A stretch of DNA of 64,000 bases, taken from a virus (Duplodnaviria > Caudoviricetes). This document shows positions 3,393 to 62,811 of this stretch, in pieces. The DNA lies in IMG/VR virus record IMGVR_UViG_3300025087_000689; one strand, given 5' to 3'. A model generated the notes under the pieces. That model had not been told where the DNA came from and searched no databases. It was given only the letters and a program-made list of their open reading frames with translations. Positions within the stretch are counted from its first letter, which is position 1; each line of letters begins with the position of its first letter. Position numbers and translations under genes: made by a program.

Positions 3393-3850
3393 AATGGTAA
3401 CTCCAATATGAAATCTTTTGGATGTTCAGAAATATCATCTAATAATCCTAATTGTTCTATCATGGATATAATTTCATTGAGAACATAATTTCTATCTTTG
3501 AATGTATCAAGTCTACCCATACTCAAATTAATATTTCGATTTCCTGGTAACTTGAAATATTCTGGATCTTGTAAATCTCCCAAATGTGCACAATCAAAAC
3601 CAATCCATTTACCTTCGGGTAAAAGTATAGTGCATCTTTCTAGATCTTTATTTTCATATGTAATTCCACCATGAACATCGAGACTATTGCTTTCTTCTTG
3701 GAAATTAATATTGTATTTTTGATGATACCATGGTATAAATACATAACCACATAGAAAACCTATTTTATTATCTTTAATGCAGTAGAGATAGTTTTTTATA
3801 GTATTAAATTCTAACATTAGAACAACTCCAACTGGGGATTTATTTTCCAA
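3389..3850 (-). CDS. Conserved phage hypothetical protein
   Basis: VHGGITY..WIGFDCAHLGD motif typical of a phage DUF; true start probably downstream. Confidence 0.7.
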   Translation of the reverse strand: MENKSPVGVVLMLEFNTIKNYLYCIKDNKIGFLCGYVFIPWYHQKYNINFQEESNSLDVHGGITYENKDLERCTILLPEGKWIGFDCAHLGDLQDPEYFKLPGNRNINLSMGRLDTFKDRNYVLNEIISMIEQLGLLDDISEHPKDFILELPL

Positions 3851-7200: not shown

Positions 7201-7613
7201 AATATAACCAATAAAGGATCAAATGGAACTTTTGGTCCATATCCTTTTTCCTTTATGAGTTCAGTTAAAGGATGAACAAATTCTTTGTACTCTGCTGAGC
7301 AATGTGATTCTAACTCAGTAAAGGAATCAAAACCTTCATTAAGTTCAATTCTTTTATCTGGTCCATAACAGGAACAATGACCCAAACCACAAATATGCCA
7401 TCTACCTTTCCTTAGATAAATCAGTTCTCCATCTCCGCAGTAGCTTCCTGTACCATACCAATAGAACGCAGCTTCTGCTTCTATAGAATTTAGTACGTCG
7501 AGTTCTGTTTGATCTAGATCTGATAGATCATATCCACCATGTTTGTCAGGAATACGATCTAGAGAATACATATCATTTTTTGTCATTAGATTAGTGTGCA
7601 ATCGAGACGACAA
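7197..7613 (-). CDS. Hypothetical protein
   Basis: ORF in operon; GHCSCYGP motif. Confidence 0.7.
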   Translation of the reverse strand: MSSRLHTNLMTKNDMYSLDRIPDKHGGYDLSDLDQTELDVLNSIEAEAAFYWYGTGSYCGDGELIYLRKGRWHICGLGHCSCYGPDKRIELNEGFDSFTELESHCSAEYKEFVHPLTELIKEKGYGPKVPFDPLLVIL

Positions 7614-7954
7614 CTTTGTACTATACTAGGTAGTTCGTCCAACCGTCTTGTGTAGGAATGTTTATCGCTTCTCTCAAATAAAACTTCATTACCTTTTATT
7701 GTACATATATAGGTTCTTTTACCTTTACCAGGAGATGTGAATGTAAACTTATCTCCGTCTCTTAATAGATGAACATTAAATACTTGAGTAGTTAAAACTT
7801 TTGTCGAGGGTTTCCCCGGTCGAACATCTTGTAGTTCGATCTTGGATTCCTTTTCATCGTGTCTCTTATTCTTCCGTCTGCGAGGGTTAACCCTTCTTTT
7901 TGTTTTTGGGGGACTGGGAACTTTCTCTTTGCTATTTTTTGGCATTTTTCGCAT
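7586..7954 (-). CDS. Basic hypothetical protein
   Basis: 122-aa ORF, K/R-rich N-terminus. Confidence 0.55.
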   Translation of the reverse strand: MRKMPKNSKEKVPSPPKTKRRVNPRRRKNKRHDEKESKIELQDVRPGKPSTKVLTTQVFNVHLLRDGDKFTFTSPGKGKRTYICTIKGNEVLFERSDKHSYTRRLDELPSIVQSCRLDCTLI

Positions 7955-8031
7955 GGTATCTCCGTAATGTCTGGCTTCTGAATGTCTTCAAAAACATGAC
8001 CACATTCAGAACATTCAAAATCGTAAAGCAT
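7792..8031 (-). CDS. FmdB-family zinc-ribbon protein
   Basis: MLYDFECSECGHVFE..CEKC; ATG at 8031. Confidence 0.8.
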   Translation of the reverse strand: MLYDFECSECGHVFEDIQKPDITEIPCEKCQKIAKRKFPVPQKQKEGLTLADGRIRDTMKRNPRSNYKMFDRGNPRQKF

Positions 8032-8038
8032 ATTAGCC

Positions 8039-8197
8039 TCAATGGATAATAGGTTTTCCCGTAGGTGCTGGTGTATAGTTTTGATTATCAATAGCTCCAC
8101 AACTTGGACATTTAATAGATTCCTTCTCAGATGTTATACCTATTAGAATATCATATTGTTTTCCGCACTTACCGCAAATGTAATCTATTAAAGGCAT
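8039..8197 (-). CDS. Second FmdB-family zinc-ribbon protein (52 aa, not in the ORF track)
   Basis: MPLIDYICGKCGKQYDILIGITSEKESIKCPSCGA..; TAATG coupling to upstream gene. Confidence 0.8.
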   Translation of the reverse strand: MPLIDYICGKCGKQYDILIGITSEKESIKCPSCGAIDNQNYTPAPTGKPIIH

Positions 8198-8433
8198 TAG
8201 TTGTTCTCCGTAGGAATCTCGGCGGCTATAGCACCTCTAGGTGATACAATTACAAATGCAATGCCAGCTGTGAAAGTGATGTGTGTGATTTGTAATGTGG
8301 TTGGATCAACTTGAGCTCCGTTGATACCTATTGGAGTGTGATCAGTACCATCTAAAAGCTGATCTAGAACTATTGCCTCACCTTTGTCGTTTGTGTTGAC
8401 ACGAATAAATCTGGAACCGTTTGGATAAATCAT
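8197..8433 (-). CDS. Hypothetical protein
   Basis: ORF with GGAG SD. Confidence 0.65.
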   Translation of the reverse strand: MIYPNGSRFIRVNTNDKGEAIVLDQLLDGTDHTPIGINGAQVDPTTLQITHITFTAGIAFVIVSPRGAIAAEIPTENN

Positions 8434-8607
8434 AATGTCTCCTTTTTTATTTAAATATTCTTTACTTAATTGAACGTGTTGTTCAGCTGTTATTCTTTTG
8501 GCTGAAAATCACCACCCAGTTTTAAAACAGATTTCAGAACAAAATTTTCTTTTGTGTTTTATTAGTTCTTTCTGACAATATTTACAGAGTTTTTTCATGT
8601 TATTTAA

Positions 8608-8689
8608 AGCCGAAGGTGGGACTCGAACCCACGACTCCTTTCGGAACCGGTTTACAAAACCGGGGCAATAGCCACTATGCGACTTCGGC
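8608..8689 (-). tRNA. tRNA-Thr(UGU) with class II-like long variable arm
   Basis: GCCGAAG/CTTCGGC acceptor, CCGGT-TTTGTAA-ACCGG, V-arm TCC-GAAA-GGA, GTGGG-TTCGAGT-CCCAC. Confidence 0.85.
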
Positions 8690-8722
8690 GTTGTTTTCTA
8701 TCTGTTTTACTATTATTTATTA

Positions 8723-8795
8723 AGCGTCGTGGTAGAATTGAACTACCGCATTGCAGTTTTGCAGACTGCCGCCTTACCACCTTGGCGAACGACGC
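8723..8795 (-). tRNA. tRNA-Cys(GCA)
   Basis: GCAGT-CTGCAAA-ACTGC; U73. Confidence 0.92.
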
Positions 8796-8800
8796 ATTAT

Positions 8801-10333
8801 TTAAATATCTAATAACTTATAAACTTGTCTACCTTCACTATGTTCATCACATAATGTTCTTATCCATCCACCTGCTCGAAGGATACCAGGTTTACCACAC
8901 TGTTCGCAGGTTACTTCTGACTTAGCTTCGCCTTCGTTGATGATGTTATATACTATATCTATGTCTTCTTTGCTCGTACCAGCAGCAAAATCAACATAAT
9001 ATCTTAAAGAATTACCACAAAAGTAATGTTTACCTTCTCTTCTAACTAAAAGAATATTTTCTGGCACTGATACGCAATATACCATATCATCGTAATCAAT
9101 CCATTCTTCTCTATATGATTGAGATGAGTTTTCCTGATATTTTTTCTTATTCATTGTATTATGAAAGTTAGTTTTTGTCATCCAATTAATAGCATACGAT
9201 GTATGTTTACCATTAATTATAATATCTTTTCCTTTATGTGTAGAAGGTGGTATTTCTTTATATATAGTTGATGAATTGCCACACTTAATAATTAGTTCTT
9301 GAACGTTATTAATTAATGTTTTACTAGTTGAATATAGCATATTAGCTGTTTTAGCTTTATGTCCATCTCCTAAATATAATTCAGTTAAAAAATAATTTAT
9401 TAATTCAGATGTTAAATGTTTTATAAATTCTGGAACTTTTTTATTTGGTGCTAAATGACCACAATTTTCTTTAAGCCAAGTTCCTAAAATAGTATTATAT
9501 ATTCGTATAATACCACCCTTACAAAGCTTATGTTTTAATTCTAGCTTATCTAATATTGATTCTACTCTTAAAATTTCTTTTGTATTTTTGTAATTTAAAC
9601 ATAAACTAATATTATTTTTATGATAGTGACCTTCTGCTATGTACCAGCCTAGTAATTGTAAGAATGGAATGATATTATAAATTTGATGGTTATATTCGTA
9701 GGTTCTTTTTACCTTCCTATTTATAGAATCGGTATAGTTATCAGTTCTTGTGTGTCCTTCAATACGATAACATTCAATAGATTTACCAGACCATGTACTA
9801 GTTTTCTTAAATCTTTTATTTTTCTTGAAATATTTTTCTGGAACGCATAACTCAAAAGGATAATCTCTTTTAATAACATTTCCTTTAATTTTGCCATTAT
9901 AATAACTACCTTTAGCACAGTATAGATTATGATTAGGTGTTACACAAAGGTTAACTTGTTTAGTATTTAAAAAATACATTAATCCTTTGTATTTATACTG
10001 TATCATATCCGACGGAATAACAAATTTTAATTCATCTTGATTAGATAATGAAGCAACCATATCTGTTGATTTTAAATCTTTAAAAAATTTCCATCCATTG
10101 TTAGTTAAGATTTCCGTTTTCTTATCATAACAACCAAATTTTTCTTTCACTTGGACTACAGTAACCTTAGTACTTGTGGCTGTTATGCGTTCACATATCT
10201 TCTTAATAAGAGCGAACCATCCATCATCTGGAAAGCCATAGCACATTAAACTGACTTGGTTACTAACATTCTTCCCATTAGGAAATAGATTAGGAAAAGT
10301 TGTGAATAAATAATCTTCTTTTTCTTTAGTCAT
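8801..10333 (-). CDS. Small conserved phage protein (136-aa extein, QVKEKFG-SLR..CEQCG..TLC) with intein
   Basis: Removing the intein gives DDGWFALI..QVKEKFG|SLRYY..TCEQCGKPG..GWIRTLCDEH. Confidence 0.85.
   Translation of the reverse strand: MTKEKEDYLFTTFPNLFPNGKNVSNQVSLMCYGFPDDGWFALIKKICERITATSTKVTVVQVKEKFGCYDKKTEILTNNGWKFFKDLKSTDMVASLSNQDELKFVIPSDMIQYKYKGLMYFLNTKQVNLCVTPNHNLYCAKGSYYNGKIKGNVIKRDYPFELCVPEKYFKKNKRFKKTSTWSGKSIECYRIEGHTRTDNYTDSINRKVKRTYEYNHQIYNIIPFLQLLGWYIAEGHYHKNNISLCLNYKNTKEILRVESILDKLELKHKLCKGGIIRIYNTILGTWLKENCGHLAPNKKVPEFIKHLTSELINYFLTELYLGDGHKAKTANMLYSTSKTLINNVQELIIKCGNSSTIYKEIPPSTHKGKDIIINGKHTSYAINWMTKTNFHNTMNKKKYQENSSQSYREEWIDYDDMVYCVSVPENILLVRREGKHYFCGNSLRYYVDFAAGTSKEDIDIVYNIINEGEAKSEVTCEQCGKPGILRAGGWIRTLCDEHSEGRQVYKLLDI
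9011..10132 (-). mobile_element. Intein (374 aa, LAGLIDADG-type)
   Basis: CYDKKTEILT..LLGWYIAEG..ELYLGDG..YFCGN|S. Confidence 0.9.
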
Positions 10334-28578: not shown

Positions 28579-31500
28579 TCAGACACTAACGTTTTTACAA
28601 TCCAACTTTTTATATTTAACATTTTTCTTTCCTACGTAAGAGATTAAGAACTTATCCTCATATTTCACTATTGCATCTGACTTTAACTTTCCGTTGTTGT
28701 CTATGATCTCATCTGTAAGTAGATCCTCAATTTTGTCACGAATGAGACGTCTCATCGGTCTAGCGTTTGAGTTTTTCTCTTCAGCTACAAGATCCAATAT
28801 CTTTTCCTTTGCCGAAGAGTCTACAGTGACCTTAATATTAAAATTCTTTTCAATATTTCGACTTATCTCAAAAAATTGAAGATTAAATATTAAAGATAGG
28901 TCTTCTCGTTTTAACGGATCAAAAATAACTGTATTTCCAATACGGTTAAGAAATTCAGGTCGAAAGAAGTTTTTTAATTCTGCATGAATAGTTGTATGAA
29001 TATTAGTCTTTTTTTCTTCAAAATTCTTATGAATGAAACCGAAGTTATTCTTCGTAATATCTTGAGAACCTATGTTTGAAGTCATAATAATGATGGTGTT
29101 TTCAAGACTTACTGAACGATTTAGCTTATCTGTAATTCTTCCATCATCCATCATCTGAAGGAAAATATCGTAAACGCTAGGATGAGCTTTCTCAACTTCG
29201 TCGAAGAGTAATACGCAATAAGGATTATCTTTAAGTGCGTTAATAAGTTCACCGCCCTCCTCGTATCCAATATAGCCAGGAGGTGAATTATGAACACCTA
29301 CAAAATTCGCAATATAAGTTGATTCATTAGCAATTGTTAAATCATATACGTATCCGTCGTATTTAACTTTCTTTTTTTGATTGATGTGATAATAATAAAA
29401 CAGGTGATCTTTATATTGTTTTCTCTGAATATTGAAAACTTTAGTTACTTTAGTTTTTAATTTTAATGATGGAAGCTTAGTATTTAGTAGTTCAGCATTA
29501 TCACCAGTAATAATTATTTTATATACCTTTTCATTTTGTAGATAATTGAATTGTGTAGAAAATCCAAGTTGACGAAGGATAGTATTAAATTGAGATGCTA
29601 AATCTGAAGAAACAGTTGTATATGTTATCTTTTGTTCTATTGTTTTGGAACCATCTCCAATAATAAGTGTTTCTATTAGATTATACAATTTGACTGGATT
29701 ACATCCAAGAATATAACTTGGAATTTTTTTCTCATAACATGTTCTTCCAAACAATTTAGAAAGCATAATATTTATAATTCTACTTGAAAATACTAAACAA
29801 ATTGAATTTCTATTTGTATGTCGTATATTAATGTGAATATGTTTTCCGAATATTTTGTGTATAAGTAGTTTTGTTTCTTGAACGTATTTTTCTTCGTGTT
29901 TGCCAAATGTTATTTTTATATTTTTCCGATTTTTAGAACATCCACCTTCACTTAAGTAATAACCTATAAATCGGAGGAATGTATTATTTATTTTAATAAA
30001 TCTATTAAATTTTACGTTTTGATAAGCCCAGATATTCTTATTATCATATTGATATCGAGGTAAGTCTACTATATAATCTTTCAAATCGATTACAGGTAAA
30101 TTTGTATCAAGACTTAGTATTTTTGGATATACTATTATATCATTTTCATCTATATCCTGACTATTTCTAAACTTAATGTTTTTTATAGAATAAGAAGATT
30201 TTTTAACTCTTTTATTGTAAAACTCAGGTTTAATACATGGTATTTCATGTTTTGACGTACAATTTAATCGTAAATTGCTATTTGCTATTCTATATGAGTC
30301 GAGTAATCCAGTATATTTATACTTATGGGTGTGTGTTACATTCTGAATTTTTCCGGTATGTGAAAATACTTTATCTCCGATCCGAACTTCTGAAATCGAT
30401 TTCATAGTTCCGTCTGCCATAAGTATTTTAGTTTTAGGAACAAAACATCCCAAAAGTCTCGAGACTGTAAACTGATCACTATACTCTGACATATCAAATC
30501 GACGAATATGTTTTTCACTGCCGAATAAACCCAAAGCTAATTGTTTAGCAAGATGAGTTTTACCTACTCCTGTAGGTCCTAAGAATAGGAATGAACCAAT
30601 AGGTTGTCCTGACTTTCGCAAGCCAACTTGAGATCTTCTAATAGCTTTAACAACAGATGTTATAGCGTCAGTTTGTGATATTAGATGATATCTTAAGAAC
30701 TCTTCTAGTTTCTTTAGTTTAGTAATGTTATCAGCTGAAAGTTCAGCTATGGGAATCTTAGTTATGCGAGAAACTGTATTTGTAATATCATGGATTGAAA
30801 GTTCAAGTCCTCTCACTTCAGAAACTAGACGAGCTCTTTTTACTTCAAGTTCATGTTCGAGATTCTTTCTATCATCCATTACTCCTGCAGCATCTATGAT
30901 ATGATCTTCATTCATATGAATAGAAATATCTTCTTCGAGAGCCTTAATCTTTTCTTCGAGAATTTTTATTTCTGGGTTGTTGGCGATAGAAGAGATTTTC
31001 TTATCTCCGCAAGCTTGGTCAAGTATATCAATTGCCTTATCAGGAAGTGCTCCACCGTGGATGTAGCGTACAGCAAGGACCACAATATCGTGGATAAGAT
31101 TCTTGTTAACATGTATGCCATGATGTTCCTCGTATTTTTTACAAATACCATTAAGAATTTTAATAGCTTCTTCTTCTGTTGGTTCAGACACTTTAATCCG
31201 TTGAAATCTACGTTCTAATGCACCGTCTTTTTCAAACACCTCCCGTTCTTCTTTAGTCGTAGTTGCACCAATAACCTGAATCTTACCTTTTGATAGGTAA
31301 GGTTTTAAGATGTTAGCTGCATCATTTCCATGAGATGAATCACCTGTACCAATCATAGTATGAATTTCATCTATGAATAAGATAATATTTTTGGCGGAAA
31401 GAACCTCTTTAATTATAAACTGCATTCTTTCTTCAAAATCTCCACGAAACTTAGTTCCAGCTACAAGAGAAGCGAGATCAAGAGCGACTACTCTTTTACC

Positions 31501-32151
31501 TCTTAACATCTCTGGAACTTGTTCATTGGTAATAGACTGAGCTAAACCCTCGACAATAGCCGTTTTGCCAACACCAGGATCACCAACAAGTAAAGCATTT
31601 CTCTTGATGCGTCGACAAAGAGCGTTGATCAGAGATCTTAGTTCTACTTCTCTACCAATCACAGGATCTAAACCACCTTGTTTAGCTTCCTGAGTTAGAT
31701 CAGTACTGTATTTGTCCAGTGTTGGTGTTTGAACCGATTCATTATTCTTTCTATCTGGTGGTTTTGATAGAGTTATAAAGAGTCTATCTGTTGCAATCCC
31801 AAGATCTTGCAGATATGTTATTCCATCCTGTTCTGACATACAATAGTTGAGAATCGTCATTGGAGTAAATAACGTAGATTGCGTTCGAAGACGTACACGT
31901 TCTTCAACTATTTTCATTTCTTTTGAGAAACTCTCAGGACGAATAATTCGCTTATCTTTTAGTCTTATGATAGAAGGATGTGTGGTGAATTCTAATTCAT
32001 CGCCGCATTCTACAAGAAGATTGTAGGCTGTCGATGATCCATCGAAGATAATAGCTTGAATTAGATGTGTAATATTAAGAACTTCATCAAATTCATTGGA
32101 AATGAATTGAGCAGTCTCAAATATTATTCTGGTTCTAGCTGTACGTACCAA
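28579..32151 (-). CDS. ClpA/B/C-family AAA+ chaperone with intein
   Basis: LDPVIGR, GDPGVGKT, GTKFRGDFEER, GPTGVGKT, DMSEY..RLLG|SPPGYIGY, FRPEFLNR. Confidence 0.93.
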   Translation of the reverse strand: MVRTARTRIIFETAQFISNEFDEVLNITHLIQAIIFDGSSTAYNLLVECGDELEFTTHPSIIRLKDKRIIRPESFSKEMKIVEERVRLRTQSTLFTPMTILNYCMSEQDGITYLQDLGIATDRLFITLSKPPDRKNNESVQTPTLDKYSTDLTQEAKQGGLDPVIGREVELRSLINALCRRIKRNALLVGDPGVGKTAIVEGLAQSITNEQVPEMLRGKRVVALDLASLVAGTKFRGDFEERMQFIIKEVLSAKNIILFIDEIHTMIGTGDSSHGNDAANILKPYLSKGKIQVIGATTTKEEREVFEKDGALERRFQRIKVSEPTEEEAIKILNGICKKYEEHHGIHVNKNLIHDIVVLAVRYIHGGALPDKAIDILDQACGDKKISSIANNPEIKILEEKIKALEEDISIHMNEDHIIDAAGVMDDRKNLEHELEVKRARLVSEVRGLELSIHDITNTVSRITKIPIAELSADNITKLKKLEEFLRYHLISQTDAITSVVKAIRRSQVGLRKSGQPIGSFLFLGPTGVGKTHLAKQLALGLFGSEKHIRRFDMSEYSDQFTVSRLLGCFVPKTKILMADGTMKSISEVRIGDKVFSHTGKIQNVTHTHKYKYTGLLDSYRIANSNLRLNCTSKHEIPCIKPEFYNKRVKKSSYSIKNIKFRNSQDIDENDIIVYPKILSLDTNLPVIDLKDYIVDLPRYQYDNKNIWAYQNVKFNRFIKINNTFLRFIGYYLSEGGCSKNRKNIKITFGKHEEKYVQETKLLIHKIFGKHIHINIRHTNRNSICLVFSSRIINIMLSKLFGRTCYEKKIPSYILGCNPVKLYNLIETLIIGDGSKTIEQKITYTTVSSDLASQFNTILRQLGFSTQFNYLQNEKVYKIIITGDNAELLNTKLPSLKLKTKVTKVFNIQRKQYKDHLFYYYHINQKKKVKYDGYVYDLTIANESTYIANFVGVHNSPPGYIGYEEGGELINALKDNPYCVLLFDEVEKAHPSVYDIFLQMMDDGRITDKLNRSVSLENTIIIMTSNIGSQDITKNNFGFIHKNFEEKKTNIHTTIHAELKNFFRPEFLNRIGNTVIFDPLKREDLSLIFNLQFFEISRNIEKNFNIKVTVDSSAKEKILDLVAEEKNSNARPMRRLIRDKIEDLLTDEIIDNNGKLKSDAIVKYEDKFLISYVGKKNVKYKKLDCKNVSV
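29287..30447 (-). mobile_element. Intein (387 aa, LAGLIDADG-type) in Clp AAA2, within RLLG|SPPGY
   Basis: CFVPKTKILMADG..FIGYYLSEG..LIIGDG..FVGVHN|S. Confidence 0.92.
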
Positions 32152-43218: not shown

Positions 43219-43253
43219 AAACTTCTCGTAGATTTATAATCTACGAGAAGTTT
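43219..43253. terminator. Perfect 16-bp inverted repeat at the ligase stop codon
   Basis: aaacttctcgtagatt-tat-aatctacgagaagttt. Confidence 0.6.
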
Positions 43254-44346
43254 ATTCGTAATCTCTAATTTCTATTAAAACTGGAAATCTTGGTATACCT
43301 TCATTAGTTTTTTGTTGAAATCTAATTATGGCTTTTTTTCCCACTAATTCTTGTAAATTTTGAAACCATTCTTTTCGCTGTTGACGGGATCCTTTTGGCC
43401 TTGCTTCAAATTCTTTGCCTTCTTTGGTAATAAGTTGGAATACGATTGTACCTTTATCATTTCCGGTTGCTTCTTTGCCACCTATAATTTCAAATTCATC
43501 GTCATCAAAATTCTTCCACTTTTGGAGATTTTTTGAACGGTGTTTGAATTCGTATTCACCTTCTTTATTTCTTATCATTATTCCTTCGTATCCATCTTGA
43601 ACAAATTGTTCATGATACTTAATGATCTCAGCTTCATTCTTGACTTCATATGTTGGAACACGAACTAAATACTGAGGATTTTCCATTTTATCGAAAAATT
43701 CTTTTATAAGTCTTGTTCTAGTTTCAAAAGGAAGACCTTCATTTGCCAAATCATAAATATAATATTTAAGTCTGAAAGGTTCTCTTGTTTTCTTAACAGC
43801 TGCAACTATATCCTGAAAAGATATTTCATTATGACAATATACTTCGCCGTCTAAAGGTGATTGTACTTCAGCTTCAAAGATTGAACATTCTTCATCAAAT
43901 TGATCAAGAGTAGTAAAAGGTTTACCGCCACGAGAATTAAAGGTGTGATCTGTATAGATGCAACGCACTCCGTTAAACTTTGGCTGCACGTAGCAAGGAA
44001 ACTTAATATCATGTTTACGTTCAATATACTTAAGAGCAAGCATAGGAAGCAGTAACTTCTGTGTCTTCTGAGCCTTCTTAGTCTCGGTATATCCTTCATC
44101 CTTCTTCTTATTCCACTTAGATTGAGCATCAGATACGGCTTGATCAAATGGAGTTGTTTCATTTTTCTTGCCGATATTCAAACCAACAGTAATCTCTCTG
44201 TGATTAACTGCTTGTTTCTTACCTTCAAGACCGTGTTCCATGGTAATAAGAACATCTTTAGCACGTTCATCTACGCGTATATTAATAAGTTTAGTGCGAC
44301 CTGTTGAACCTGTACCATAAAGTGTTGGAAAGATTTTACTTTTCAT
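43252..44346 (-). CDS. ATP-dependent DNA ligase with N-terminal extension
   Basis: PMLA, QPKFNG, DGEVY, EGIMIR, HRS..LQKWK, PRFP. Confidence 0.92.
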   Translation of the reverse strand: MKSKIFPTLYGTGSTGRTKLINIRVDERAKDVLITMEHGLEGKKQAVNHREITVGLNIGKKNETTPFDQAVSDAQSKWNKKKDEGYTETKKAQKTQKLLLPMLALKYIERKHDIKFPCYVQPKFNGVRCIYTDHTFNSRGGKPFTTLDQFDEECSIFEAEVQSPLDGEVYCHNEISFQDIVAAVKKTREPFRLKYYIYDLANEGLPFETRTRLIKEFFDKMENPQYLVRVPTYEVKNEAEIIKYHEQFVQDGYEGIMIRNKEGEYEFKHRSKNLQKWKNFDDDEFEIIGGKEATGNDKGTIVFQLITKEGKEFEARPKGSRQQRKEWFQNLQELVGKKAIIRFQQKTNEGIPRFPVLIEIRDYE

Positions 44347-46068: not shown

Positions 46069-47166
46069 TCATTTAAACTCTATAACTTTATGGTTTTTGA
46101 AACATAAAAAGTTTTTTGCTCCAAGTTCCTTACTTAAGCATTTAGCAAATATTTCTGCATCTGGGTAAACATATTTATTTCCGGCTGAAGTATATACATA
46201 ACTCGTGACATGTTCGAAACAGGTTATAACTAAAGTAAAATCTTTAATATCATCTTTCTGTATTGCGTATCTAAGAAGATCTGCATCTAACATCGACACG
46301 CGAAATTCACCTTGGTATTTGTGAGTTACATTGGTTTCATTTGGGTCGTGTATGATATGTTCTTTAAGATCTTCATTAGTCATAGGACCATTACCATGGC
46401 GTGTTTGGTAACAACGGGTTACAAGATATATTTCTGGATCGGTCACTTCCAGCTTTTTTAAATTTGTCATACCACAGTTACCACGAGTAACATGTGGAAA
46501 GAATCCTATGTCTTGATCGAGCATTAAACCCTGAGATCCTTCAAAGATATTAACTGATTCAACTCGATTGATATCTCTATCCCATTTCATTAATTCGATG
46601 CGAATCTGTTTTTCTTCAAGTAAGAGATAACAAGTTGGTAGGAAATCTTTGTCGTATTCAGCGAATTCTTGTAAGTATTTTTTTCTTATCAACTCTAACT
46701 TAGTTTCGAAGATCTTTGGGTAAAGAAGATCACCTACAAGAAGTGAATAATGTTGTTCTTCGCGTTCAATGGTTTTACCAAAACCTACACCACACGTACC
46801 ATTTTTTCTGTTCCAGGAGTTTTGAGTATTAGTCCATTTATCATACGGAGTAGTAATAGGACATCTTGGATCAAGATATAGAGTAGGTTCAATACCTTTC
46901 TTACGTAGAACTTTTAATTCGTTCGTAATACCTACTGGATCAACCGTGCATAGTCGAGACCAATAGGTAATATTACCTCGAAAGCTACCTGAGCCGAAAT
47001 TGGAGAAAACATGGCGAATGCCATTATGTACAACAGTATGTCCCGCTTGATGACCACCACTAAATCGTGTAACGATAGCATCAGGATACTGAGAGCAAAG
47101 GTAGTCTGTTACGACACCTTTCGCACAGTCACCAAATCCAGCCCCAATTACGGCTAGGTTTTTCAT
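46069..47166 (-). CDS. purA: Adenylosuccinate-synthetase-like (PurA family, divergent) protein
   Basis: GFGDCAKG, RFSGGHQAGHT, GTCGVG, FEGSQG, TRHGNGP. Confidence 0.85.
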   Translation of the reverse strand: MKNLAVIGAGFGDCAKGVVTDYLCSQYPDAIVTRFSGGHQAGHTVVHNGIRHVFSNFGSGSFRGNITYWSRLCTVDPVGITNELKVLRKKGIEPTLYLDPRCPITTPYDKWTNTQNSWNRKNGTCGVGFGKTIEREEQHYSLLVGDLLYPKIFETKLELIRKKYLQEFAEYDKDFLPTCYLLLEEKQIRIELMKWDRDINRVESVNIFEGSQGLMLDQDIGFFPHVTRGNCGMTNLKKLEVTDPEIYLVTRCYQTRHGNGPMTNEDLKEHIIHDPNETNVTHKYQGEFRVSMLDADLLRYAIQKDDIKDFTLVITCFEHVTSYVYTSAGNKYVYPDAEIFAKCLSKELGAKNFLCFKNHKVIEFK

Positions 47167-50556: not shown

Positions 50557-51015
50557 AAAATTAAACATCAGACACTTTAAAATGACACAAAATTGTGCCA
50601 GTTACTTCCGTTTTAATTTAAAGACGTTCTACGAGTTCTACTGGCTGAAGTCACGTAGATTATACACGAAACACCTTCCTGGATTTGTCTCTTTGGCGTT
50701 GCCATGCTAGACCGTTCCCTAGGTCTCTATGTCTAGCTAATCCTCCACAATACCAGGTAAGAGTCGGATTCTATTGGCGGTTATTTCCGCCGAATTTAAA
50801 ATATTGTGGCCGTGACAGCCTGTCCCCAGTTATTATGAACTCAATCATAATATCCTATTACTTTGGGTTTCCCATGAGACACTGATAGGACAATACACTA
50901 ACCCCGAAGGGCATATTAATATCTAATCAGGTAGCTTTATATGATTCCGCTTACGAACCTCTGCAGATTCACGCCATAGAATCAGATTAAACAACTAATT
51001 AAAATTTTATTTAAA

Positions 51016-51265
51016 TTATTTAATCCTTGATGGAAATCCACCTCTGTCTTGGTTTGCTCGTTTGGTTTTTGGTTTACCAATAACTTTAATTTCATTTTCG
51101 TCTAGCCAATAACCCTCAGGAAGCTTACCTTCCTTGTCTATCATGGGGTGTAATCCAATAACGATTACAACCATTAAGATGTTCTGAACGGCAGGTAACA
51201 GTTCCTTCGAAACCAGAAATACTGCTCTTTACCTTAGAACCAAGTTCAATTGCAAAAACACTCAT
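51016..51265 (-). pseudogene. Small conserved phage gene with +1 frameshift in a C4 run
   Basis: MSVFAIELGSKVKSSISGFEG..GCNRYWITP / MIDKEGKLPEGYWLDE; 250 nt = 83 codons + 1. Confidence 0.65.
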
Positions 51266-51914
51266 ACTGTCTCCTTATAAAAATATAAACGTTAAATCGG
51301 AGGAGACTTTACGGTATAAGTCTCCAAACCTCTGAGTTTGACAAAAACTCAATAACACAGGGCGACGTTGACGGTCCTAGCGGAGAGGAAGGATACCGTC
51401 GGATGTCCGTTCGTGCTCCGCCTTTTTGCCTGTTCGGTTAGCCAAGTTAGACTTCTGTGTCTCACCCAGCCATTTAGGGTGCAGAAGGGGGTGACAGCCG
51501 AGTCAGGTCTTATTCGCATTCATATTCCTGTAGATATGGACTATAAAGATTTTCTGTCATGGCAGTCCAACATCCTTTAATTGTTTCAGGGTATCTTGTT
51601 TCCATAGAATCCCAAAAACGGTAGATTGTTTGACGACCACCAGATTGATGTTTATCCCACTCACCCCAGAACCAATCTATGTCTTCGCGTGCGATCATAA
51701 CTCGTTTTACTTGTGGTTTTGTAACTTGTTCAGTTTATTGCATATTGGTAGTTGTTTCAGGAGTTTTTGCTAGAACTATAGGTTGTGATATAGTTCTAGC
51801 TGATGTTATTCTTCTTGGAGTATTAGATGTAATACTTATAAAGCTCATGAACGCTATAGCAAATAAAATGACTACTCCAATCATGACCGTTACTTGTTTC
51901 ATACAAATCCTATA

Positions 51915-52541
51915 TTAGATGTTATATTTTAATAAGTAATCAGGCGATATTACTTTAAAACTAATCCGGTTTAAACTAAAATCGTTTAGCTCTCGGATTA
52001 CTATACCCTCTCTAAGATCATCAGGACCTGATTCGTAGGAGCCTTTCGACATCTCCACGAGTTTATCAATCGTGGTGTCTTTTAAAGATATAACATGATT
52101 CACAACTGGAACAGTTTTCAGTCCTAGGAAGGTGCAAACAAGACCCATCTCAACAGGATCTAAATATCTGTGTTGTTTGACGTTATATACGTTAAAAACA
52201 AACAGTTCAAGTTCTTTGAGCTTGCATCTGTTCTTCTGTATACCTGGACCTGCTATTTCACCTTGGATCCAAAGTGTTTCACCATAACTTTTGAGTTGTT
52301 TTTTGAGATTATATTTTATCGCGATTTTACTCCAGTTTGAGTTATCATCCTCTTTCTTTTTTAATTCGCGGGAGTATATTCCAAAGAAATCGCGGAAGAT
52401 ACCTTTCTTATAATAGTAAGTCGCAGAACAATTATGAACTAAAATACCGTTAGCAAAATAATTATGAAATGATGTTTCTATATCATATTTTTTAGAATTG
52501 TTTTCTATTTTCTTGATGAATACAATTTCATCCGTTTTCAT
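51915..52541 (-). CDS. Split RNA ligase, C-part: IntC (37 aa, 52431-52541) plus ligase C-extein
   Basis: KYDIETSFHNYFANGILVHN|CSATYY..QGEIAGPGIQKN..VFNVY..REGIVIR..SFKVIS. Confidence 0.92.
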   Translation of the reverse strand: MKTDEIVFIKKIENNSKKYDIETSFHNYFANGILVHNCSATYYYKKGIFRDFFGIYSRELKKKEDDNSNWSKIAIKYNLKKQLKSYGETLWIQGEIAGPGIQKNRCKLKELELFVFNVYNVKQHRYLDPVEMGLVCTFLGLKTVPVVNHVISLKDTTIDKLVEMSKGSYESGPDDLREGIVIRELNDFSLNRISFKVISPDYLLKYNI

Positions 52542-52542
52542 A

Positions 52543-53541
52543 TTAGTTCTCCATTTTTTTTAAGATTAGTTGTTCTAATTTTTTTTTATCTTTAAAACAA
52601 TTTTTAATTTCATCTTCCCAAATATACACAACTTTAAATCCTTTAGATTCTGCTAATTTCTTTTTTTCTTTGTCGTAGTCCCAAATTTCTCTTGCTGATT
52701 CAATTCCATAATTGAATTTGATAAGATCATCAGCCTTATATATGTTTGGATTAGCGTGCCAATAATCTCCATTTACTTCAATAATAATTTTATTATCGAT
52801 TAATATATCATAGATTCTTCGTTTTTTATTTGAAATTTTAATAACAAAATTTATACTGAATGGAATATTAAGTTTTAGTAAAATCTCTCTAATAGAATAT
52901 TCTAATGAAGAGTTATAAATTCCTCCACTTTTACAATTTGCTTCAATACATTTATCGTTTAGTAATGATTTATTTAGCCATTCATTTTTTTCTTCGTCTG
53001 TAATGTTCTTCCATTTATCTTTCATTACCTTTGAAAAGTATTCTGTTCGTGTCACTCCATATTTTGTTAGTAGGTTACTATCTAAACTTGTTTTTATTTT
53101 TTCAATAATTTCTTTTACTTGAAATATATTATCTATATCATTACCATACTTTTTATGTAATGTATTTTTAGTTGTAGGTAGTTGAAATGTATTTTTAACT
53201 CCATATTTTTTTATACATGTATTTTTATATTTGTCTCTTGTTTCTTTGAGATTTGTGGATTCTTTAATAGTTCTTTTTTTAATATTAAAATATTTTAGCA
53301 AAAATAATGTAAAAGAATAATTAATATCGTATTCTTTTTTTAAGTCTGGTAAAGATTTTTTATTATTAATATATAAATCTTCTAATTTTTCTTTATTACA
53401 TAAAGTAGGATAATTATGTTTAATACATAAATACTTTAGTTCAGTAACATTTGTACTTGTTTTTTCTTTACATCTTCTTAGATGAGAGGTTTCTCCTCGT
53501 GGTTTTAGTTCTCTAGAACAAAACGGACATTTAAGTATCAC
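52543..53541 (-). CDS. Free-standing PD-(D/E)xK (Vsr/DUF559-like) homing endonuclease between the split-intein halves
   Basis: KKYGV repeats; YDILIDNKIIIEVNGDYWH; YIWE. Confidence 0.82.
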   Translation of the reverse strand: MILKCPFCSRELKPRGETSHLRRCKEKTSTNVTELKYLCIKHNYPTLCNKEKLEDLYINNKKSLPDLKKEYDINYSFTLFLLKYFNIKKRTIKESTNLKETRDKYKNTCIKKYGVKNTFQLPTTKNTLHKKYGNDIDNIFQVKEIIEKIKTSLDSNLLTKYGVTRTEYFSKVMKDKWKNITDEEKNEWLNKSLLNDKCIEANCKSGGIYNSSLEYSIREILLKLNIPFSINFVIKISNKKRRIYDILIDNKIIIEVNGDYWHANPNIYKADDLIKFNYGIESAREIWDYDKEKKKLAESKGFKVVYIWEDEIKNCFKDKKKLEQLILKKMEN

Positions 53542-53590
53542 ATCAACCTCCTTAGTATATCTATATTATACTAAAAAGATTGAATGAATT

Positions 53591-54472
53591 CTAGTTTTCT
53601 AGTAAAATATCTCCTTCTTTCAAATCTTCTACTTTGCGATAACAGTAAGAATTTGGTAAATATATCTTATGATTACCTGTAACTTTTATGATTTTACCAT
53701 TTTTTGTGGTGATTTCATACCATTCGTGTTTATTTTCATTTATAAAAGTATTTTTAATTCTAGTTAATTGTATTTTATTAGTTGTAGGATTTACACCAAA
53801 TACTTTACCTTTATATTTAGTGTCGCAAATTTCTTTTATTGTTTTTAGTCCTTTATCTGTGTGAAGTATTGTATTTTCATCAAGACAACCATCAATTTTA
53901 GTTGTAACATACCACTTTTTATCTGAGTTAAGATGAGGTTCAAGATCACGGAAGATAGCTTGTACCCTTGTTTCATCTGTATGAGGAATGCAAGAAGGCC
54001 AACCTTTATCCTTCTTTCTGAAGATAAGAGGTCGTATCTTACGATATAACTTGAACTTACAAAGAAAATGATCAATCGGATGTTGTCTTTTAGCAGTAGG
54101 TGAACATTCACCAGCTTCATCTGTATCGATCTTAGTTACACCTATGATGTCTGTTACATCCATTCCCTCAATAGGGTCTACGATTGCAGGAAAGTCCTTT
54201 AAAGGCATGATAAGACCTTGTGATGTCACACCACGCATTTTCAAAGTTTTGACCTTGTAATGCCTTTTTTCCATAAAGGAGAAGGCTGGAATTATAGGTA
54301 ATCTTGAATCGATCTCAAAATAGATCACAAGATCCCCGGTTTTAATACCGTTATCTATAGCTGTTATACATTTCCATCCATTACCATGCATACTAGCTAA
54401 GACTATTTTATCTGCACCAGGAATAACTTCAAGTGAACTGATTTTTTGTATTGATGCTAGCTGACGAGTCAT
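53591..54472 (-). CDS. Split RNA ligase (Rnl2/DRB0094-like), N-part plus IntN (98 aa, 53594-53887)
   Basis: RQLASIQKI..GAD..YFEIDS..KMRG..SQGL..TDETRVQ..TTKIDG|CLDENT..TGNHKIY..GD. Confidence 0.92.
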   Translation of the reverse strand: MTRQLASIQKISSLEVIPGADKIVLASMHGNGWKCITAIDNGIKTGDLVIYFEIDSRLPIIPAFSFMEKRHYKVKTLKMRGVTSQGLIMPLKDFPAIVDPIEGMDVTDIIGVTKIDTDEAGECSPTAKRQHPIDHFLCKFKLYRKIRPLIFRKKDKGWPSCIPHTDETRVQAIFRDLEPHLNSDKKWYVTTKIDGCLDENTILHTDKGLKTIKEICDTKYKGKVFGVNPTTNKIQLTRIKNTFINENKHEWYEITTKNGKIIKVTGNHKIYLPNSYCYRKVEDLKEGDILLEN

Positions 54473-55184
54473 AATTAATCCTTTATTTTTTCAATTATTT
54501 TAGTGAATTGGTCTCGGATTCTGATGGCTTCATCCTTATATATGATTTTTGAAGCATATCCTTCTTTATAGTCGTTCATAGTTACCAATAACCTATCTGG
54601 AGAATTGCCAGAAATTCGAACTCTTATACAGTCCATTATTTACTCCTTGTAACTCTCTTTTTTCTTACAACTCTTTGAGGTTGTGTTATTGTCGTTGATG
54701 TATAATTTGATGGTGAATAATAACCTGAACACATATCTGCAGTAATACTATTCATTTTGTTTAAGATGTCTTGTATATCAGTGGGGTCTGAATTTCGATT
54801 TTTATTTGGTGGAGTATATTGTCCGTTTAAATTAGATGGACGTTGTTGTTCTATAAGAACTCCGTGTGTTGTAATATTCTTATGTTCATCATATGCTTCA
54901 CATATTAGATTACGTCCTATACCTGTATATACACAACGTAAAACACAACCTGTTTGAAATCCTCTTTGTGTAAGAGCTACAACAATGCCAAACTTTCCGG
55001 TTTGTTTCTCTTTTTTGTATGTGTAAATGTAAGAGAGAAAGTGTTGTCTTTAATAACACTTATATCTTTAACTCTAGACTTAATACGTCTTAAAATCATT
55101 ATCTGTCGGATTGGAGTTAAAAATTTGCGACATAATCTCGCAAAATGAATACGTAATGTCATGTGACTCCTATCAATAAAAATT

Positions 55185-55269
55185 TCTGTGCGGCAAGATT
55201 CGAACTTGCGATGTCTTTCGACTCCTGGTCCCAAACCAGGTGACCTTAACCAGACTATCCGATGCTCAG
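55185..55269 (-). tRNA. tRNA-Pro(UGG) with long variable arm; acceptor and D-arm mismatches
   Basis: CCTGG-TTTGGGA-CCAGG, V-arm GTC-GAAA-GAC. Confidence 0.65.
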
Positions 55270-55317
55270 ATATTATAGTTTATATTCAAACTATTATGTC
55301 AAAGAACTCTAATTTAA

Positions 55318-55389
55318 TCCGACTGCAGGAACTTGCATCCTGTTATTAGGTCCCACAAACCTATGCATTACTATATATGCTACAGAAGG
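55318..55389 (-). tRNA. Degenerate tRNA-His(GUG)
   Basis: TAGGT-TTGTGGG-ACCTA; two acceptor mismatches, D-loop lacks GG, T-loop TGCAAGT. Confidence 0.55.
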
Positions 55390-56798
55390 GATGAATGCTT
55401 CTAACTACACTATCAATACCATATTATATCATATCTAAAATATTAATGTTTTTTGGAACACTATGTTTATGAGATATCTTTGTATGAATGTGATACACTT
55501 TTCCTTCAATCTCGTCTTCAGCTGGCATATCATAGAATTTTCCAGTAAAATTGATCTTAAATGGATCATCATAGGGTATATTCGTACCAGATATACATAC
55601 TGGAAAAGTCTCACTATTTGCTAATTTATAGTAGACATGTTTTATAAACTGTCCGTGTGCGTCACGTCCATTAATTATTTCAACAATGGAATTACGCTTA
55701 AGATGCTCCATGAATTCATTAGTATTCATAGATCAATGGATCTCATTGTTTGTACCGTTAAGCATATTGTACTCCAAACGAATGTTAGAAATCAAGTGGA
55801 ATTAGAGGTTCTGGGTTCTTATGTTCCCACAATTCTGACGGTCTTTTGATCTTAATAATCTGTTTTTTCTGGATAATACAACCATCTCTTATAAGTGGAT
55901 CCACTAACTTGTACGCATCAGCTATGCATTCCTCACATTCTTCACACAAGTTATCATAGTTAGTACATGAAGCAAATTTAACTGATTCACCAATTTCATA
56001 TACACTCATATTACGATTTAACGTTTATCTGACTTCGTAAAAGTAACTGACATAGAAATGTTAAACACCAAGCCATTCTCCATGTTATCTTTGGAAAGCC
56101 AAAGACAGTTGGAATAACAAAATTCCAACATAACATGACAAGAACTGCAATTAGGCAGCTAATAATAGCTGCTATTACTAGTCCAATTAGAACTAGTACA
56201 GTTGTAGAAACGATTGTTGTGAGATTCATTCTCCTTGAAAAGTAATTCATTCATTATTAGTCTAGAAAAACATCAAATCTCTTTTCGGACTTGTTGAGAA
56301 ATTCTATTTTTCCATTATTAATTTTATAAGGAGACAGTCTGACGTCTCGATTACCATCCTTATCATATATTGCTATGACAATAAAGTTATCGTCGCTATC
56401 TAGAACAGGAGTTGTCATAACAAATACTATAAATGAAGCACCTGTTTCGTGTCCTTTGTTAACTAAAGATTGTACGACTCCAGATTCTGGTATAATTCCT
56501 TGTAGCTTCACATACTATGCACCTATTCACATCTCCACATCCAGTAATGGATACAAAATCTCCTTCTCTCATAGTATTGGTATAATTCCATGTGGTGGAT
56601 CATATGTATATAGGTCAATTTGTTTAGGGTGAAGAAATACTTGTGTTGTCGTTACTTGGTTTTGTGTTATACCCTTTATTGTGTCGTATCTCCAGCCGGA
56701 AAGATCATAGTTTCCTGATCTTTTACATTCTTCTTTTGGGCAAGAGCTACATTCTGGATAAGCCCAACAACCTTTGAAACGTATTTTATCTCTAATAT

Positions 56799-60841: not shown

Positions 60842-61141
60842 CTAATGTCCATACCTATTATATATGGGTTGTTGAGTTGGTATTGTTCGCGAATTTAAAA
60901 GACTATCAAGTGTATGAACTAGTCGTATTTGACAGTATTTGCAGTTACCCTTGTGAACAAGGAATTGTATTTCTGAGAAACTAGCTGGACCAATGTACTC
61001 ACAACCTTCTATCTCAAATATCCAAAGATTTTGGGTATTATCGCAGTTTGTCACTTGTTCTTCAAGTTTGTAAGACTTGATTAGCTCATGATCAGCTGCA
61101 CAGACTAAGATGCATAGTAACAGAATGATTCTAATCATCAT
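60842..61141 (-). CDS. Secreted/signal-peptide hypothetical protein
   Basis: IEGCEYI..HKGNCKYC. Confidence 0.65.
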   Translation of the reverse strand: MMIRIILLLCILVCAADHELIKSYKLEEQVTNCDNTQNLWIFEIEGCEYIGPASFSEIQFLVHKGNCKYCQIRLVHTLDSLLNSRTIPTQQPIYNRYGH

Positions 61142-62811
61142 TGTTCTCCTAATAGTTCAAGTATTGGACCTTCGGATTTTTCAAAATGTACTGAATCGAA
61201 CACTGGTCCGTGGATGCTACCACTATCCGTTATGTGGTGTCCTTTAATCTTGATAATTGAATCATTATTAATGACTTCATCAATGTTTTTAGCAAACCAC
61301 TTACGCTCATAGTCGGTGAATCCAGATCCAACATCTGTGTTACCAAGACCATCTATCTTACAGTGTAATGCACCAATCCTGGTCTTATCGATTTTACTAG
61401 ACTTGGTTTCTAGTGGTTCCCATCCCACGATTTTACAATCATAGAAGTCAGTCTTCTTGATTTTCCACCATGCTTGTGCTTCAGGATTAAACTGTGGATC
61501 AGGAGTTACTTCATCAAGAAGTTTTATTACTAGACCTTCACCCCTACGTTTTTCGACCACAGCCTTCCATCCATTTCTAACCGAGTCAAACTGCTCGGGA
61601 ACATACACGTAAGTATGGTTGTCAGCGATCTTTGCCATGATTTTATGCTTCTCACGGTAGGTAAGAGATTTGGCCGATCTGCCATTAACCTTTGCAAGAT
61701 CATAAATAACGATGGCTGATTGCCCTTTCTGAATTTGTTGTTCTGAACGAGAACGCAGTGGATTTGATATGAGTGAGAATTTGGCCAATAGATGTGGATG
61801 CTCAAATCCGTAGTCTTTAAATACTTGCCCACGCGTAATTCTGCGTCCAGGAACATAGATGAGTTCACCCCGAGCAATCGTCCCGTGAAATTCTGAGTGG
61901 ATATCATCTCTAATGTCTGGGAACTTATCTTGGAGAAATATTGTACTTTCACGTTTGCCTTCTCTCCACGAGTAGATTTGGTTACCACTTTTGTCGAATC
62001 TGATGAGATTGGCTGCACCATCGATTTTTGCCTCGATAATATAGGCTTGGTTATTTTCCTTAAGTTTCTTTTCGAGATCAAATGCTTTAGGTGGGACATC
62101 TCTTCCCGTGGTACCAGCAATGAGTTTAAACTTGTTCTTACCTTTGATTTGCGGCTCATCATATTTCCTTCGAGAACAGATCCAATTACCTTTTGAATCC
62201 TTTGGATCTATAAGGGCAAAACGACCAGTGATACTCCTGTTTGTGTCAGTTTTATAGATATTGAATAAAATTTCGCCTTTCGAATGGGTTTTGAGTAATT
62301 CAATATCTTCATTGAAGACAACCGTTTGAGTACCTCTACCGTATCCTTCCTGGATAATACCTGACCAGTTGTATCCATATTTACCTTTTGAATGTTGAGG
62401 TTGACGAGCGAATGATGTGCGAACTACATCTCCCTGAGGGAATAGTCTTTCTATTTCTCCTTTGGATACAGCTCCACGAAAGATCTCTATGCCATCTGCA
62501 TCTACAATAGATATGTCATGATGAAGATGTAATGCTTCGTGTCGTTGAATATATAATTTACCAACTCTTGATTTTTTGTTCTCAGGTATTTTATTGAAAT
62601 TATTAAGACGTATTGCTGGTTTATACCTATCTCGTATGAACCGACGAGTACGAGATTTTAACCATGGTTCGACAAAGGTGCTGAATAACTCAGCACCAAT
62701 GTCTACCATAGTGAGAACAACCGCAATCTTCTTACCCATGTGAACAAACAGCTGCTGTTGCTGCGGCAAGTTCAATTGCACGCGGATGAGCAGCCGTTGT
62801 TTCAATCTCAT
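61138..62811 (-). CDS. ATP-dependent ligase with N-terminal LigD phosphoesterase-like domain (true start probably ~62740)
   Basis: QRHEALHLHHD; EAKIDG, RGEL, YDL, EGLVIK, WKIK, VGSGFTD. Confidence 0.82.
   Translation of the reverse strand: MRLKQRLLIRVQLNLPQQQQLFVHMGKKIAVVLTMVDIGAELFSTFVEPWLKSRTRRFIRDRYKPAIRLNNFNKIPENKKSRVGKLYIQRHEALHLHHDISIVDADGIEIFRGAVSKGEIERLFPQGDVVRTSFARQPQHSKGKYGYNWSGIIQEGYGRGTQTVVFNEDIELLKTHSKGEILFNIYKTDTNRSITGRFALIDPKDSKGNWICSRRKYDEPQIKGKNKFKLIAGTTGRDVPPKAFDLEKKLKENNQAYIIEAKIDGAANLIRFDKSGNQIYSWREGKRESTIFLQDKFPDIRDDIHSEFHGTIARGELIYVPGRRITRGQVFKDYGFEHPHLLAKFSLISNPLRSRSEQQIQKGQSAIVIYDLAKVNGRSAKSLTYREKHKIMAKIADNHTYVYVPEQFDSVRNGWKAVVEKRRGEGLVIKLLDEVTPDPQFNPEAQAWWKIKKTDFYDCKIVGWEPLETKSSKIDKTRIGALHCKIDGLGNTDVGSGFTDYERKWFAKNIDEVINNDSIIKIKGHHITDSGSIHGPVFDSVHFEKSEGPILELLGEQ

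Follow-up and report, generated by a model that had tools for sequence, protein, structure and literature searches.

A probable fractured gene in an Rnl5-family RNA ligase of a large groundwater phage, with a split intein and a Vsr-like endonuclease gene at motif I

Fractured genes, as described by Dassa, London, Stoddard, Schueler-Furman and Pietrokovski in 2009 (PMC2677866), are known from gp41-1 to gp41-8, NrdJ-1/2, NrdA, IMPDH-1, DnaE, DNA ligase and terminase loci. In these phage-derived loci the break in the enzyme gene falls at a conserved position, with the N-terminal part ending in the N-terminal half of an intein (IntN), the C-terminal part opening with the C-terminal half (IntC), and a free-standing endonuclease gene lying between the two. 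Half of the loci carry an endonuclease of the Vsr-like/EDxHD type, and hairpins were reported in 15 of 16 endonuclease leaders of fractured loci, where they were likened to the translational attenuator of the Aeh1 nrdA endonuclease (PMC2677866). Here we describe a locus in a 64,000-nucleotide (nt) stretch of tailed-phage DNA (IMG/VR record IMGVR_UViG_3300025087_000689), hereafter the window, that is in all probability a fractured gene of this kind, its host gene being that of an ATP-dependent RNA ligase of the Rnl5 family in a large groundwater phage. The observations behind this reading are the anatomy of the locus, its conserved catalytic residues, its family assignments, the foreign composition of the insert, an empty allele and the recurrence of the layout.

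The likeness to the 2009 loci covers the cut at a conserved enzyme site, the split intein, the free-standing Vsr-like endonuclease gene whose translation start is covered by a hairpin, the tight coupling of the endonuclease end to the IntC start, and the phage origin. All of the features that define a fractured gene are present, namely an N-terminal open reading frame (ORF) that ends with IntN and a stop codon, a C-terminal ORF that starts with IntC, an endonuclease gene and hairpin between them, and exteins that align without gaps to intact relatives. There are two differences. The Rnl5 ATP-dependent RNA ligase is absent from the eight host types listed in PMC2677866, and the intein sits directly after motif I (KxDG). 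Thus, the layout has been known since 2009 and is no new kind of system, whereas an ATP-dependent RNA ligase as its host is new relative to the 2009 list.

The locus consists of three neighbouring ORFs on the minus strand, at 54472..53591 (293 amino acids, aa), 53541..52543 (332 aa) and 52541..51915 (208 aa), and its features are collected in Table 1. The first ORF reads KKWYVTTKIDG195 and then directly C196LDENTILHTDKGLKTIKEICDTKY, passes through VTGNHKIYLP and ends with GDILLEN293 and a stop codon. The third ORF opens with MKTDEIVFIKKIENNSKKYDIETSFHNYFANGILVHN37, after which C38SATYYYKK follows. A preliminary description of this DNA had given lengths of 98, 332 and 37 aa for IntN, endonuclease and IntC together with the junction residues, all of which proved exact on reading the ORFs; its overall scheme of two RNA ligase halves, a split intein and an endonuclease between them likewise agrees with the family searches and with the relatives described below. 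The guanine-plus-cytosine (GC) fraction is 0.371 in the N-extein, 0.248 in IntN, 0.231 in the spacer, 0.229 in the endonuclease gene, 0.216 in IntC and 0.355 in the C-extein, as compared with 0.35 for the window. The break in composition falls at the splice junctions, and the insert is foreign by base composition.

Table 1. Coordinates of the fractured ligase locus in the window and of related second-site loci in other contigs.
Feature	Coordinates	Strand	Description
N-extein, aa 1-195	53888..54472	minus	Rnl5 OB domain and start of nucleotidyltransferase domain; TDETR169; motif I K192-I-D-G195
IntN, 98 aa	53594..53887	minus	C1-L-D-E-N-T...T70-G-N-H73 (block B)...LLEN; stop codon 53591-53593
RNA hairpin in the IntN-endonuclease spacer	53538..53587	minus	pairs AAGGAGG and the GTG start; includes TATAAT
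Free-standing endonuclease gene, 332 aa	52543..53541	minus	GTG start; phrog_3339; Vsr-like/EDxHD profile matches
IntC, 37 aa	52431..52541	minus	...Y19-D20...F-A-N-G-I-L-V-H36-N37; intein_Cterm match
C-extein, 171 aa and stop	51915..52430	minus	+1 Cys (CSATYYYKK); motifs III, IV and V; PF09414
Second-site loci	L006 4001-6504; L008 4001-6569		same endonuclease family between the halves

By its architecture and motifs the interrupted enzyme is an Rnl5-like ligase. In Pfam searches the first ORF matches PF21189 (the PHA02142 OB domain, 1.5e-21) together with Intein_splicing, and the third matches Intein_splicing (model positions 121-155, the last 35) followed by PF09414 RNA_ligase (4e-16). Each half also matches the PHROGs RNA ligase family phrog_968, and the NCBIfam model TIGR02306 (RNA ligase, DRB0094 family) matches both halves, over model positions 1-121 and 189-341. 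The halves score 48.9 and 43.3 bits with this last model and the intact relative P0002 scores 109.9 bits, all under the cut-off of 151. As even the intact relative stays under the cut-off, the ligase is best placed in a divergent phage branch of the family. The nearest solved structure to both halves is that of NgrRnl, the Naegleria gruberi RNA ligase and Rnl5 prototype, which is matched by the N-half at E 6e-15 (PDB 5COT/6VT3) and aligned with the C-half over residues 175-337 at E 1.2e-10. In these alignments the window K192-I-D-G195 falls on NgrRnl motif I (VTVKLDGS), which bears out the earlier placement of the break at the KxDG motif, and TDETR169 falls on TDQER149. The C-half motifs IQGEIAG (III), REGIVIR (IV) and SFKVIS (V) all align to NgrRnl as well.

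As in the characterized Rnl5 enzymes NgrRnl and DraRnl (PMC4408790, PMC7261155, PMC1807946), an N-terminal OB domain is joined to a nucleotidyltransferase domain, here across the two halves, over which equivalents of NgrRnl Arg4, Arg149, Lys170, Asp172, Glu227, Glu312 and the motif V lysine are also distributed. In NgrRnl, Lys170 is the adenylylated residue and Arg149 binds the ATP gamma phosphate (PMC7261155). The cut therefore divides the active site, with the N-half holding the OB-domain contacts, Arg169, the Lys192 nucleophile and the motif I Asp194, and the C-half holding both metal-binding glutamates (motifs III and IV) and the motif V lysine. Judged by these residues, neither half has a complete active site by itself. 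This differs from NgrRnl and DraRnl, each of which is one polypeptide, whereas the window ligase is encoded by two genes whose products need joining. The enzyme probably must be stitched together as a protein, and a cut beside the lysine nucleophile would mean that this phage has ligase activity from the gene only after protein trans-splicing.

Rnl5 enzymes seal nicks in duplexes with RNA as the 3'-OH strand (PMC4408790), and their physiological roles have been described as uncharted (PMC5397189). The preliminary description had proposed that tRNA-repair activity depends on assembly of the two halves. Given the uncharted role of this nick-sealing family, tRNA repair is an unsupported guess, and no end-healing gene was found adjoining the fractured ligase in the window. 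The window also contains two ATP-dependent DNA ligase-like genes, both on the minus strand and uninterrupted, at 43252-44346 and 61138-62811 (phrog_114, 4.9e-74 and 4.3e-20).

The intein halves are recognized by the NCBIfam models TIGR01445 intein_Nterm (IntN, 35.3 bits versus a cut-off of 24.5) and TIGR01443 intein_Cterm (IntC, 23 bits versus a cut-off of 15.6). We examined residue conservation in an alignment of 15 IntN and 8 IntC sequences, the relatives being 35-69% identical to those of the window. C1, W56 and the block B residues T70 and H73 (TxxH) are invariant in IntN, and all of the IntC sequences share the block F D20 and the block G H36-N37, followed at +1 by a Cys or Ser. By these residues the intein is of class 1 with the full set of catalytic residues. 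The nearest solved intein is NrdJ-1 (PDB 8UBS/9OMB), matched by an IntN profile at E 1.5e-8 and by the C-half at E 5.8e-4, and itself derived from a fractured gene. Its likeness to the window intein is at the profile level only and takes in the class 1 assignment, a similar split position (IntN of about 100 aa and IntC of about 37-42 aa) and an IntC end of the form FANxILVHN. It differs in its extein, which is a B12-dependent ribonucleotide reductase as opposed to an RNA ligase, and the window intein has Cys as its +1 residue. NrdJ-1 ranks among the very fast natural split inteins (PMC7090010).

Structure prediction points to association of the two intein halves. With IntC modelled together with its +5 extein residues, the IntN and IntC complex reached an ipSAE of 0.94 versus 0.00 for the best of three controls, with 97% of contacts common to three prediction runs and a partner pLDDT of 86. 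The mark used for ipSAE was passed by 58 of 80 solved complexes and by 2 of 110 mismatched pairs, a calibration that is only rough here as we used our own alignments. Since split inteins have solved structures, the pass amounts to likeness to these and may reflect nothing beyond that likeness, which falls short of proof that the pair binds. A confidently predicted interface would also suit a different role, in which the intein halves are a mere dimerization module that rebuilds the ligase non-covalently, with no peptide bond made. Precedents for such a rebuild exist among fractured phage genes, in which intein-free split enzymes joined by added peptides include Aeh1 NrdA and an SbcD-like case (cited in PMC2677866). 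A dimerization module would, however, give no reason for an invariant C1, TxxH, block F Asp, terminal HN and nucleophilic +1 residue across the clade, and a 135-aa HINT fold left in place beside the lysine nucleophile would probably block the active site. We therefore consider a purely non-covalent rebuild very improbable and retain trans-splicing as the reading of the intein halves.

The middle ORF matches the PHROGs homing endonuclease family phrog_3339 (1.4e-13). As a single protein it has a sole and weak match in PDB, I-Bth0305I (3R3P). A profile built from five orthologues in related loci has 3R3P as its top PDB match at 3e-6 and reaches E. coli Vsr (1CW0) at 0.0096. The single protein matches TIGR00632 vsr at 1.5e-4, under the cut-off of that model. 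The nuclease domain is C-terminal, at about aa 211-325 (window 52567-52911), and E255 (IEVNG), D245, H262 (YWH) and D290 are invariant among the five orthologues, in keeping with the defining residues of this type, EDxHD (PMC3239194). Thus, the preliminary description was right as to a 332-aa endonuclease, and its generic PD-(D/E)xK class gives way to a more exact one; by the orthologue profile and the invariant E, D, H and D the protein is a Vsr-like endonuclease of the EDxHD family and of the I-Bth0305I type, for which cleavage is predicted. I-Bth0305I, the EDxHD prototype (PMC3239194), likewise has a Vsr-like C-terminal nuclease domain with E, D, H and D, and its N-terminal DNA-binding region may have a counterpart in the window protein. 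I-Bth0305I sits in a recA group I intron and has NUMOD2 repeats, unlike the window protein, which lies inside a split intein and matched no NUMOD family in our family searches. Its N-terminal 200 residues instead begin with a Cys/His zinc-finger-like motif (C5, C8, H20) and contain three KYGxxN repeats of the DUF7487 kind, the DUF7487 match to this region being weak at 23.2 bits against a cut-off of 27.

Within the 49-nt spacer that follows the IntN stop codon are TATAAT, a strong ribosome site (AAGGAGG) and the GTG with which the endonuclease gene starts. The spacer folds as a hairpin of 21 bp in which both the ribosome site and the start codon are paired, with a minimum free energy of -20.3 kcal/mol (z -4.79) that was matched by none of 200 shuffles. 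Comparable hairpins occur in three of the related loci described below, L003, L008 and L010 (z -4.8 to -5.9), and weaker ones in L004 and L007. At the other end of the endonuclease gene, the ATG of IntC lies one base past the endonuclease TAA, with GGAG 8 nt upstream and still inside the endonuclease gene, which suggests that translation of the two genes is coupled. A scan of 51700-54800 for promoters and terminators found no more of them than in shuffled sequence.

An empty allele of the insertion site is provided by a group of intein-less ligases (P0002-P0013) that are 363-380 aa long and 56-69% identical to the N-extein, with P0002 the closest at 69%. The 195-aa and 171-aa exteins align gap-free to these proteins, and the predicted spliced product would accordingly have 195 + 171 = 366 aa and a mass of about 42 kDa. 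The junction in intein-less P0002/L011 reads KVDG/QSGTYYYKKRFFGKDFFGIYSRE where that of the window reads KIDG/CSATYYYKKGIFRDFFGIYSRE (the slash marks the insertion point), with no residue lost. Specifically, KVDG/QSGTYYYKK of P0002 and KIDG/CSATYYYKK of the window are colinear in both protein and DNA. No near-identical DNA was found among GenBank phages, where protein-level matches were only to uninterrupted RNA ligases of Pseudomonas, Aeromonas and other phages. A tblastn search of the window with the three proteins found no paralogues of the endonuclease or of the intein halves. Finally, the contigs of four runs that cover 51000-55500 contain no joint that skips the insert, a result that is uninformative on intein-less alleles in the population, since contigs drop rare variants.

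The three-part layout recurs in independent metagenomic loci and hence is not a product of chance. Seven such loci (L003, L004, L006, L007, L008, L009 and L010) have an Rnl5 N-half that ends in a related IntN. The layout is complete in L003, L004, L006, L007 and L008, with an endonuclease of 320-341 aa between the Rnl5 N-half with IntN and the IntC with Rnl5 C-half; L010 extends through the endonuclease to the start of IntC, its contig ending inside the C-half, and the contig of L009 stops right after the N-half. In L006 and L008 the intein occupies a second Rnl5 site, right after TDEER, whose arginine is the equivalent of NgrRnl Arg149, the ATP gamma-phosphate arginine, and motif I lies in the C-half. 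A further locus, L001, on a 136-kb IMG/VR contig, has an IntN 53% identical to that of the window and a related Vsr-like endonuclease, inserted after EKLDG/ in a ligase of the T4 Rnl1-like type. Two side observations concern these contigs. L001 contains an RNA repair cluster at 4023-9781, composed in this order of a kinase and CPD healing protein (AAA_33 and tRNA_lig_CPD), the fractured Rnl1-like ligase and an ATP-dependent DNA ligase. In L004 a GIY-YIG/NUMOD3 endonuclease gene (6447-7298) lies directly 3' of the fractured ligase, placing two different selfish endonucleases at one gene.

These loci bear on whether the layout is real. The window comes from a metagenomic assembly, and the runs that match it best are possibly its own source and hence not independent, so that the true gene could in principle be uninterrupted, or could have a contiguous intein in which the endonuclease is an in-frame domain. 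Against an assembly or sequencing artefact of this sort are the endonuclease's own start, ribosome site and hairpin, the genuine stop codon that ends IntN, and the presence of contigs with this stretch in several runs and studies. The same architecture in seven loci of other samples, complete or ended by a contig edge, and the ending of 149 of the 156 closest IntN relatives at the protein C-terminus, argue in the same direction, and we regard an artefact as extremely unlikely.

Contiguous inteins also occur in this ligase family. Three metagenomic Rnl5 ligases of 730-780 aa, P0121, P0122 and P0123, have contiguous LAGLIDADG inteins at K/CDG, KLNG/ and TDETR/, respectively. P0122 has its intein at the same KxxG/ site as the window, with a similar IntC end (HNYFANGILTHN/S), and P0123 has its intein at the second Rnl5 site. 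Unlike the window ligase, all three are one polypeptide with an in-frame LAGLIDADG domain and would thus splice in cis. The resemblance of the P0122 C-terminal splicing region to the window IntC suggests that the endonuclease part has been exchanged on one splicing scaffold.

Additional analysis of the intein with an IntN profile search returned 694 clusters (at 50% identity) with E <= 1e-10. Among the best 156 of these relatives, 149 are split, with the protein ending no more than 12 residues past the IntN end, and 155 begin with Cys. In this same set the intein lies directly after Kx(D/H/N/E)G in 106 cases, one or two residues later in 18, and after TDEER in 24. The Rnl5 OB domain is present in 70 of the 156, so at least 70 clusters are Rnl5 N-halves that end in an intein of the window type. 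The other exteins of the clade are T4 Rnl1-like ligases (some fused to a kinase), HNH-RNA ligases, and ATP-dependent and NAD-dependent DNA ligases; extein labels are rough, as they come from single-linkage BLAST, and one NAD-ligase N-half landed in the 'Rnl5' cluster. The IntN tree (99 columns, 156 rows) is poorly resolved and its bootstrap had not settled, with its well-supported branches pairing inteins of different ligase families and sites in a manner that forces several switches. The occupation of Rnl5, Rnl1-like, HNH-RNA ligase and DNA ligase exteins by related IntN sequences implies that the intein clade jumped repeatedly between ligase families, probably driven by an endonuclease that recognizes DNA encoding the shared motif. 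There is about an even chance that the window element belongs to a large undescribed clade of naturally split NrdJ-1-like inteins specialized on motif I of polynucleotide ligases. If so, many diverged split-intein pairs would be available from this clade, and some of them could be fast and orthogonal to one another.

We infer splicing, ligase activity and endonuclease homing at this locus from its conserved residues, its family assignments and the recurrence of the layout, and the following course is proposed. A mobile unit made up of a class 1 intein and a Vsr-like/EDxHD endonuclease gene would have entered between Gly195 of KIDG and the residue that follows it, and since the endonuclease is a separate gene within the intein, the intein is naturally split. 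The N-gene would then produce the OB domain, TDETR, KIDG and IntN, while the endonuclease would be made from its own, hairpin-masked ribosome site and the C-gene would be translated from the ATG one base past the endonuclease stop into IntC and motifs III-V. IntN and IntC would form the HINT fold and trans-splice to give the 366-aa ligase with KIDG-CSAT across the junction. Finally, the endonuclease presumably cleaves ligase alleles that lack the intein, upon which repair would copy the unit in; its candidate target is the DNA that encodes motif I in empty alleles such as L011.

Several observations weigh against this interpretation. With the single protein, the endonuclease's matches to Vsr, DUF559 and TIGR00632 fall under curated cut-offs. 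The insert may have arrived recently, as its very low GC suggests, and its intactness could then reflect youth and not selection in this genome. Dispensability of the ligase gene is hinted at mainly by L012, a groundwater contig of 9.7 kb that agrees with the 3971 bases of window 50591-54561 at every position but 54257, where the TAC of Tyr72 in the N-extein is TAG. This TAG may be a real nonsense allele, with part of the population having a dead ligase, or it may be a contig error; contigs of run X10 break at 54248-54256, beside the variant position.

Both the variant and these breaks would suit a decaying locus, in which invasion by the endonuclease broke the intein, the halves splice poorly or not at all, and a dispensable accessory ligase is being lost. 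Such a course is also in line with the finding that Rnl5 is inessential for D. radiodurans growth (PMC5397189) and with the view of fractured genes as transient states of a homing cycle (PMC2677866). However, none of the three ORFs is disrupted in the window or in the contigs of two runs, possibly from the source sample, that span the whole stretch, and all splicing residues and all ligase motifs have been retained. Loci with inteins of just 35-53% identity moreover keep the layout, which requires purifying selection on splicing, and the conservation in distant loci argues for selection at the level of the clade. Decay thus appears improbable, although it is the least improbable of the alternatives considered, and we favour a locus whose halves are predicted to be spliced into a working ligase.

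In regards to novelty, we found no paper that describes an intein, split or contiguous, in an RNA ligase of the ATP-dependent (Rnl) type, a weak absence since subscription journals were mostly outside the search. RNA-ligase inteins were found reported only in RtcB-like and tRNA-splicing ligases of actinobacteriophages (10.1101/2025.01.02.630785). The preliminary description had no RNA-ligase example among its known cases, and for the ATP-dependent type this holds as far as papers are concerned, but the locus is no one-off in view of the Rnl5 N-half clusters present in public metagenomes. The fractured-gene arrangement is thereby extended to ATP-dependent RNA ligases. The locus would also offer a predicted natural split-intein pair that is related to the very fast NrdJ-1 and has a native G/C junction, with relatives that supply many diverged pairs. 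In addition, it provides a case for how inteins and endonucleases switch host genes, with one clade found at motif I of RNA and DNA ligases as well as at a second Rnl5 site after the ATP-binding arginine.

Contigs with the stretch were found in groundwater and soil metagenome runs of several studies, some of which may be the source sample; no RNA run was listed among them. The window itself is phage-like, with genes all on one strand, 15 tRNA genes and several inteins in replication genes. Specifically, a family B DNA polymerase (3817-7200, minus strand) has a contiguous intein with LAGLIDADG_3 at aa 484-553, and a class II ribonucleotide reductase (1-2682, minus strand), whose ORF runs off the window edge, has a LAGLIDADG/Hom_end match at aa 503-572. 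A ClpB-like AAA protein (28579-32151, minus strand) has Hom_end_hint, Intein_splicing and LAGLIDADG matches over aa 569-955, and a 510-aa ORF (8801-10333, minus strand) has LAGLIDADG_3 at aa 312-375 together with intein-type PHROG matches. An adenylosuccinate-synthetase homologue at 46069-47166 on the minus strand (phrog_1211, PurZ-type, 2e-56; PF00709) hints that the phage may replace adenine with 2-aminoadenine (Z genome). The tRNA genes are spread over 8608-55270 on the minus strand and include two each for tRNA-Met, tRNA-Arg and tRNA-Ser, with one tRNA-Ser predicted to have an odd ACT anticodon.

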